Virus record (IMG/VR): IMGVR_UViG_3300036861_000507
Coordinates: 1-64,000 of that record
Length of the DNA: 64,000 nucleotides
Source: a virus
Strand: one strand, 5' to 3'
In this document: positions 7,722 through 9,004 of the stretch, in pieces
Layout: each line of letters begins with the position of its first letter
Position numbering within the stretch: the first letter of the stretch is position 1
Made by a program: the position numbers and the translations under genes
The notes under the pieces: generated by a model
What the model saw: the letters and a program-made list of their open reading frames with translations, nothing else
Told to the model about the DNA's origin: nothing
The model's database searches: none

Positions 7722-8816
7722 TTAGATCGCCGACGCGTCATGCAGGAACTGCACGATGCCCGACTGTTGCAGGAGCTTGGCGCCGGTGAACGAGGAGGCA
7801 CGCGCGAACGAATAGTCCTGCTCGTCGTCGTAGCCGATCTTGGTGTCGAGACCCTCTCCCGAGTCGAACGCGGAACCGACGGCATCGCGATGGTAGAAGT
7901 AGCACTTCTCGCTTGCCGTCCCGACGCCGGTGAGGTTGGGATGGAAGATCCAGTTGAAGCCTGCCCAGCGCATCATGCGCCGTGCCGGCCCCGCGAGGAA
8001 CTTCATCTCGACGTAGTCGATCTTGGTGGCCTCGGGGATTTGCATGATGTAGCCGCGCACCGCAGGGGTGGCGACGGCGAACATCTTGTCCTCCTCCTCG
8101 ACGGGCACCTCGTTCTCGCCGAGCGTCACCATCGCCTTCGCGGCAACTGACAGCGCGAAGGTCGCGGCCGCGCCGAGGTTCGAGGTCGCCGTGTCGAGCT
8201 GCGTGATGACGTCAGCATCGAGACGGCGGTTCAGAACCTTGCGCGTGGTCTCCTGCATCAACCTCTTCTGGTCGCCCTGCGACTGGAAGATGTTGAACCT
8301 CGTCTTTCGCACGAGGTCATGCCTGCTATGTTCGCTTGAGGTCGCTACTCTCAAACCGCGTCGGTATTGACGCTGCTTCGGATTGCTCCGAAGGCCAGAC
8401 CATATCATCACCCCTGTGGGGTGCTGGGCGCTTCGGGCCGCTTGGCCCTACTCCTCGAAAGGATGGTCGTTGCACCTTCCGATGTGGGAATTCCCACATC
8501 GGCTTGGCTCAGGATTGTCCCGATGGGAGGTTCCCTGAGTTCACCCAGTTTGCGACGTGCATTGCTGCACGAAGGAGCCGCATGACTCGACCAGCGTCGC
8601 GGTCGTCTGGGTCATTGAATCGGCGCGAGCCGGGATCAGACCGTTGATACCGCGGGTTACTGCAGCGGCACCGCCACTGCCGGCGACCAGGAACGTCGCC
8701 TGGTTGCCCTTGATCACGGCCTCGGTAACAGTCGTTTGCCGAAGCCACGACATACCCTCTTCAAAGGTCGCCACGATCTGCTGGCGATATTGAATTTGGG
8801 GTGCGCTTTCTGCCAT
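7722..8816 (-). CDS. Major capsid protein, two exons (8816-8585 and 8323-7722), 277 aa after splicing
   Basis: Exon 1 MAESAPQIQYRQQ...TATLVE and exon 2 HDLVRKTRFNIF... are in the same frame; joining them gives ...LVE-W-HDL...; follows the scaffold gene; strong SD. Confidence 0.85.
8324..8584 (-). ncRNA. Group I self-splicing intron (IA-like, no ORF) in the MCP gene
   Basis: P1 GAGU/GCUC with U.G at the 5' splice site; P2 and P9 with GCAA loops; P3 CUGGGUG/CGCCCAG; P4 CUCAGG/CCUGAG; P7 GACCA/UGGUC; P7.1, P7.2, P8; J8/7 AUGAUA; in-frame stop inside. Confidence 0.9.
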
Positions 8817-9004
8817 TGTTGGCATCTCCTAGTTGGTTGAGATGCCGTCGTTCTGGTTGTCCTTTTCCGATGCGTTCACGGGTTGCCCCGCCGCGAGGAC
8901 GAGGGCCGCTTGCGCAGCCAAAGGCGCTTCACGAACGGTGGGTGGAAAATGACTGCCGTCCTGGCGCCGGCGAGCCGGGTTGGCCAGACGTTGGCAGTCT
9001 GGTA

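Follow-up and report, generated by a model that had tools for sequence, protein, structure and literature searches.

The split capsid gene

The virus record that holds the locus (IMGVR_UViG_3300036861_000507) is 93,968 bp long, corresponds to a soil phage of about 94 kb and is rated complete by CheckV; the window analysed here is a stretch of 64,000 nucleotides that begins at its first position. The gene for the major capsid protein (MCP) is split into two exons by an intron, and all three lie on the minus strand. Exon 1 (8586..8825) comprises 80 codons, translated as MPTMAESAPQ...TATLVE, with the second ATG (MAESAPQ, 8816) being the start in most homologues and the point at which the homologues of 277 amino acids begin. 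The last exon-1 nucleotide, as placed by the Rfam alignment, is U8585, the first base of a split Trp codon. Exon 2 (7722..8323) opens with GG, the last two bases of that codon, and runs on through HDLVRK to the stop; its translation from 8321 to 7722 is HDLVRKTRFNIF...DASAI*. It matches the Pfam family PF19821 (Phage_capsid_2) with an E value of 1e-15, and the major head protein profile phrog_3437 is matched by exon 1 at positions 5-79 and by exon 2 at positions 84-292 of 294. The gene lies between a scaffold-like gene and two tail tubular genes, with a portal/adaptor gene (phrog_332) also among its neighbours; the profile match extends over both exons, and this gene order is the expected one. 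There is a single capsid gene copy in the whole genome. A protein search returned 1153 capsid homologues, the majority of them uninterrupted and 277 amino acids long, of which the best-named comes from an Aquamicrobium record; comparison of the capsid protein found no closely related cultured phage.

The intron is inserted inside the Trp codon (U|GG) of the motif E-W-H-D-L-V-R-K. More than 100 homologues that have no intron read TLVE-W(or F)-HDLVRK, and 106 close proteins without an intron have W (95) or F (11) at the junction and never S, which confirms the Trp that the initial annotation had proposed to verify by such an alignment. At the DNA level, 29 of 32 intron-less viral loci read GAR TGG CAY GAY. 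In a groundwater contig, only 'AT' separates the bases that correspond to 8323 and 8587, giving GTCGAA-TGG-CA; this is thus an intron-less allele that carries the predicted junction. Removal of the 261 nt from 8584 to 8324, and of these only, gives GAG U|GG CAU GAC and restores the conserved E-W-H-D; the excised segment ends ...CAUAGCA|GGCAUGAC. Since the conserved junction is restored only by this excision, the last base of the intron is A8324. Taken together, the intron-less homologues and the groundwater junction uphold the exact coordinates first proposed for the excision.

Other 3' ends were considered and set aside. With the normal 5' site, G8323 or G8322 as the terminal base shifts the frame, while G8318 keeps it at the cost of the conserved W-H, giving E-Y-L-V. 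The statement in the initial annotation that the 261-nt excision alone is in frame and that the next G shifts it was therefore correct as to the next G and too strong as to uniqueness: besides the G8318 choice, a displacement of both splice sites by one base (E-S-H-D) is also in frame. Neither of these two in-frame choices restores the conserved capsid sequence.

The intron, its fold and its relatives

An ORF-less group I intron with a core of P1 to P9.2, a 5' splice site after GAGU, a guide that pairs in register with the ligated exons and an unaltered guanosine-binding pair in P7 had all been proposed from the letters alone, and each of these proposals was substantiated. A scan of the whole window with Rfam gave a single match, to the group I model RF00028 at 8594..8376 on the minus strand (72.9 bits, cut-off 50; E value 1.4e-16). 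Model positions 1-253 are all matched by the intron, and this is the sole group I intron match in the entire 93,968-bp record. Together with a consensus fold, the match defines an intron of 261 nt at 8324..8584 (minus strand). The 5' splice site, GAGU|CAUGCGGCUC, is set by the U.G pair of P1, in which U8585 faces a G of GGCUC; this pair (alignment columns 25/32) is invariant in all five same-site introns. The internal guide sequence, CAUGCGGCUC, was read from the sequence at 8575..8584 (minus strand). Its GGCUC part pairs with exon GAGU and intron C1 to form P1, and its CAUGC part pairs in register with GCAUG at +2 to +6 of exon 2 to form a P10 of 5 bp, leaving at exon-2 position +1 a G/G mismatch that the G-ending sister introns have in common with it.

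The fold was evaluated on an alignment of five same-site introns. With P1-P9.2, the P7 pseudoknot and P10 all included, 96% of the cells are paired, compared with 32-39% when the partners are slid by 1-3 columns, and 32 pairs are changed on both sides; none of 500 shuffles reached any of these measures. The core helices P3 to P8, including the P3/P7 pseudoknot, are supported by covariation. The 3' strand of P7, UGGUCU, lies at 8394..8399 (minus strand) and its 5' partner ACGACCA at about 8465-8471. P7 pairs 155/243 and 160/239 covary, whereas the guanosine-binding pair (columns 157/242) is G-C in five of five, the same as in the G-ending relatives. Compensatory changes are also found in helices 10 and 11 (columns 162-173 and 177-192), which are P7.1 and P7.2, and in helices 14 and 15 (columns 267-296 and 298-320), which are P9.1 and P9.2. 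We assign the intron to subgroup IA because of the P7.1 and P7.2 hairpins and the P9.1/P9.2 extension.

No homing endonuclease ORF was found within the 261-nt intron or among the neighbouring portal, scaffold-like and tail genes. An ORF of 57 codons with an ATG start (window 8326-8499, minus strand) runs in the sense direction through the ribozyme core, and its UAG stop lies immediately upstream of the 3' splice site. An endonuclease would need a longer frame, and this one is probably a chance occurrence.

The terminal guanosine that characterises group I introns (omega-G) is replaced here by A8324. An error in this base had been raised as a possibility by the initial annotation. The probable source run (X1) contains a contig of 1684 nt over 7731-8900, and a second soil run (X2), which comes from a different sample and study, contains contigs over 8008-8444 and 8416-8644; none of them differs from the window, so that contigs of both runs agree on the A. 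Word depths of the identical sequence in the two soil runs are about 21 and 7.

The same base also ends a diverged copy. The viral contig L004 carries at the same site a homologous intron of 300 nt (L004:2199-2498; Rfam, 70.8 bits) that is 71% identical to the window intron and ends ...GUAUCA|GGCACGAU. The ENA protein P0018 has the sequence of the L004 exon-2 ORF and reads Arg (AGG or CGG) at the junction codon instead of Gly (GGG); its omega base is therefore not G. At that codon the proteins P0069, P0057 and P0082 read Gly (GGG), which would fit further G-ending copies, as deduced solely from the codon before HD.

To leave the terminal base free, the pattern used to scan the metagenome collection specified a portion of J8/7-P7' and the beginning of exon 2, with the tail and the omega position open. 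It returned the L004 contig and four further introns at the same site (L106-L109). Their 3' ends read ...AAUACAG|GGCAUGAC in L106, which is present without its 5' part, ...ACAACAG|GGCAUGAU in L107, ...ACAUCG|GGCAUGAC in L108 and ...ACAUCG|GGCACGAU in L109, and L107, L108 and L109 share the 5' site GAGU|CA(U/A)GCGGCUCC. In the column homologous to A8324 (column 331), L004 has A and L106-L109 have G, and the terminal column of the five-sequence alignment reads A, A, G, G, G. Given the terminal G and the U.G site in the sister introns, the lineage is canonical and yields Trp at the junction, and the window intron and L004 represent a G-to-A change at omega.

The free-omega pattern had 0 matches in genome_contigs. 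A 17-mer scan gave 120 loci in genome_contigs and 2 extra ones in viral_contigs, all of them chance matches that lack the intron core, and neither a 5'-end 20-mer nor a core motif of the G-ending clade nor a tail-plus-exon pattern found further same-site introns in viral_contigs. Wastewater and groundwater runs (X3 and X4) contain contigs that are ~91-92% identical over exon 2 and the 3' half of the intron (window 8281-8454), indicating that closer intron-bearing relatives exist in other habitats; X3, which is probably a DNA run, contains relatives that are all intron-less or partial. The A-ending introns (261 and 300 nt) have lengths divisible by three and the G-ending ones (277, 266 and 259 nt) do not. 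This may be a coincidence, because an in-frame UGA 15 codons into the intron blocks read-through.

Beyond this site, the 25-nt core from P7.2 to P3', GTAGGGCCAAGCGGCCCGAAGCGCC, occurs unchanged in 54 viral contigs (L049-L102) in many different genes, and all 54 show the same tail layout of P8-P9-P9.1-P9.2-GAA(C/G)A. From the shared core and tail layout we conclude that the intron belongs to a large family in soil and freshwater phages. Other insertions interrupt capsid genes nearby. In L017 (IMGVR_UViG_3300009285_000364) a 910-nt insertion (1585-2497) lies between the His and Asp codons of E-W-H-D, about 5 nt downstream of the site in the window, and encodes a protein of 264 amino acids with two LAGLIDADG motifs. 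In L016 (IMGVR_UViG_3300046115_000144) an insertion of about 1 kb (1346-2395) occupies a second capsid-gene site, after about residue 43, and encodes a LAGLIDADG protein of 308 amino acids that resembles that of L017; the W site of the L016 gene is uninterrupted. Rfam found no group I match in either insertion at E < 0.01. Truncated capsid ORFs (P0014, P0026, P0017, P0058 and P0063) read ...NIR/NTW/NTR-LVRK or MYLD-LVRK. This points to an apparent hot spot at the conserved motif, with more intron insertion sites at most a few bases away.

Proposed splicing with a terminal adenosine

Selection on the intron and its exons could be assessed from the two A-ending copies. Between them there are 17 compensatory double changes. 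As a pair they are set apart from the three G-ending introns by 17 fixed differences, where other groupings give 0-4, and the most economical reading is therefore that the A had a single origin. In the two phages with the A, the capsid exons have a dS of 0.71 and a dN of 0.092 (dN/dS 0.13), and we take it from this ratio that the product of both genes is under selection. Purifying selection has thus acted on ribozyme fold and capsid protein alike across a deep divergence while omega was A. From this conservation we infer that the A-ending intron is spliced productively, with the proviso that homing could uncouple the histories of intron and exons and weaken the dN/dS argument.

We consider it probable that the 261-nt ORF-less group I intron, which lies within the Trp codon of the single MCP gene and has a genuine encoded A as its terminal base, still splices itself along the usual pathway of two steps. 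Established at the level of sequence are its fold, the U.G 5' site, the boundaries needed to restore the capsid protein and the encoded terminal A. In the first step, an exogenous G would attack after U8585. In the second, the 3'-OH of exon 1 would attack after A8324, which would act as the leaving-group nucleotide and would sit in, or next to, the unaltered G-C guanosine-binding site. The 3' site would be fixed mainly by the in-register P10 of 5 bp together with a contact between J7/9 and the tail, and the second step would probably be slower with a terminal A. The A would have arisen from G in the common ancestor of the window intron and L004 and would have been tolerated since; alternatively, as has been proposed for the intron of sea anemones (PMC8146996), it may lower hydrolysis at the 3' site and circularisation.

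Features of the family bear on this scheme in both directions. In the wider family, changes in the tail element GAAC are matched by changes in the first base of J7/9, and the distance from GAAC to the terminal base is 6 nt in the window intron, L004, L108 and L109 and 7 nt in L106 and L107. G8323, which directly follows A8324, stands at the L106/L107 spacing, and one can conceive of some mis-splicing that yields a frameshifted mRNA. The P10 helix measures 5 bp in the window and 3 bp in L004, against 5 bp in L107 and 2 bp in both L108 and L109, all three G-ending; it is not consistently longer in the A-ending copies, which counts against the explanation that we favour. No change specific to the A-ending copies that remodels the binding site was found, and their P7 sequence occurs in other family members. 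Work on the Tetrahymena intron, by Michel in 1989 and by Been and Perrotta in 1991, is said to imply that a G-C binding site should disfavour a terminal A.

Two alternatives retain a terminal G at position 8323. If both splice sites lay one base further 3', with the cut after C8584 (a C-G pair) and G8323 as the terminal base, the product would read GAG UC|G CAU, with Ser for Trp. This alternative was not considered in the initial annotation and has some appeal: the excision would keep its length (261 nt) and the frame, in the window as in L004; an unbroken helix of 10 bp, one of them G.U, would form between the guide CAUGC|GGCUC and GAGUC|GCAUG; and the terminal G would face the unchanged G-C binding pair. 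Yet the invariant U.G wobble stands one base upstream, the sister introns use the U.G site with a canonical terminal G (the 5' site being read in L107-L109), and the cleavage site would adjoin the 4-nt loop of P1. The main objection is that close homologues always place an aromatic residue here, W or F and never S in all 106 that lack an intron, and we give the shifted sites low odds. A terminal G8323 combined with the normal U8585 site would leave the mRNA one base short, and another mechanism, for example ribosomal frameshifting, would have to restore the frame. Although this G lies 7 nt after the GAAC tail element, as do the terminal G residues of L106 and L107, the ligated sequence GAGU|GCAUGACC reaches a stop after about 23 wrong-frame codons, no slippery sequence is evident and the register of P10 would be off by one base, all of which makes such an arrangement very improbable.

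Conversely, the A may be real and harmful. If the change from G to A cripples exon ligation, the capsid gene would be non-functional or weakly expressed, and the phage would be inviable, in decay or reliant on co-infecting relatives. The second step is considered to require the terminal G (PMC6545197, PMC8146996, PMC9223047), and no compensating change is seen in P7. Against this, the A has been kept in two lineages separated by the synonymous divergence and under the constraint on the capsid exons given above, the ribozyme has accumulated its compensatory changes, the genome is rated complete with its one capsid gene, and the identical sequence recurs in two soil runs at the word depths already stated; we therefore regard a crippled intron as unlikely. 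That the A is simply a sequencing or assembly error for G is a natural concern with a single base in a metagenome assembly. However, the contigs of the two runs, from different samples and studies, show no differences, diverged L004 has the same A and P0018 reads Arg and not Gly, and an error is accordingly exceedingly improbable. Our preferred reading thus remains an intron that splices by the normal route with its encoded terminal A.

A bolder extension of this reading is that A-ending introns are recurrent and selectively kept in phage capsid genes, that an unaltered G-C site accepts the A, and that the A suppresses 3'-site hydrolysis or circularisation or tunes the timing of capsid production. 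We put this forward tentatively and regard it as doubtful. If it were true, the G- and A-ending sister introns at one site would be a matched natural pair for testing the selective upkeep of the A.

Comparison with known introns

The terminal G of group I introns has been described as universally conserved (PMC6545197, PMC8146996, PMC9223047). A published exception is the mitochondrial ND5-717 intron of hexacorals, which ends in A and whose exons are perfectly ligated in vivo (PMC6545197, PMC8146996). This intron, found in sea anemones and mushroom corals, resembles the window intron in having a natural terminal A. It differs in being a mitochondrial giant with genes inside P8, strictly vertical inheritance and, in some species, back-splicing, whereas the window intron is a phage intron of 261 nt with subgroup-IA architecture and has G-ending sisters at the same site.

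Capsid genes are also known as hosts of such introns. The capsid-gene intron of mycobacteriophage LittleE was demonstrated by RT-PCR and N-terminal sequencing (PMC3706429), and a group I intron in the capsid gene of the lactococcal phage Tuc2009 is cited in PMC3706429 as well. On the strength of these two cases, the second as cited there, the view in the initial annotation that a capsid gene is an unusual host could not be sustained. LittleE and Tuc2009 share with the window a self-splicing intron in the MCP gene of a tailed phage, with capsid production dependent on splicing, as is predicted for the window. The LittleE intron has a terminal G and a homing endonuclease gene (PMC3706429), in contrast to the window intron with its terminal A and no ORF.

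The subgroup IA2 introns of the T4 genes td, nrdB and nrdD (sunY) have similar P7.1 and P7.2 elements between P7 and P3' as well as P9.1/P9.2, the likeness being drawn from the IA2 fold, and like the window intron they contain an early in-frame stop. The T4 introns lie in genes of nucleotide metabolism, have a terminal G and in most cases contain an endonuclease ORF. Another intron without the canonical terminal G, Cbu.L1917 in the 23S rRNA of Coxiella burnetii, was reportedly described by Raghavan and co-workers in 2007 as a self-splicing group I intron; it is a bacterial rRNA intron, whereas the one in the window interrupts a phage capsid gene.

Although the terminal G is usually presented as universal and as indispensable to the second step, the published exceptions make it near-universal and not strictly defining. 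Annotation rules that require it would mis-join this capsid gene. At one site in an essential, highly expressed gene, a single ribozyme family ends in G in four copies and in A in two diverged copies, with an identical binding pair, and a one-base swap in either direction would test exon ligation without a terminal G. A capsid-gene host and a terminal A have each been published before, LittleE and ND5-717 being examples; what makes the intron described here particularly valuable is that its G- and A-ending copies form a matched natural pair at one site.
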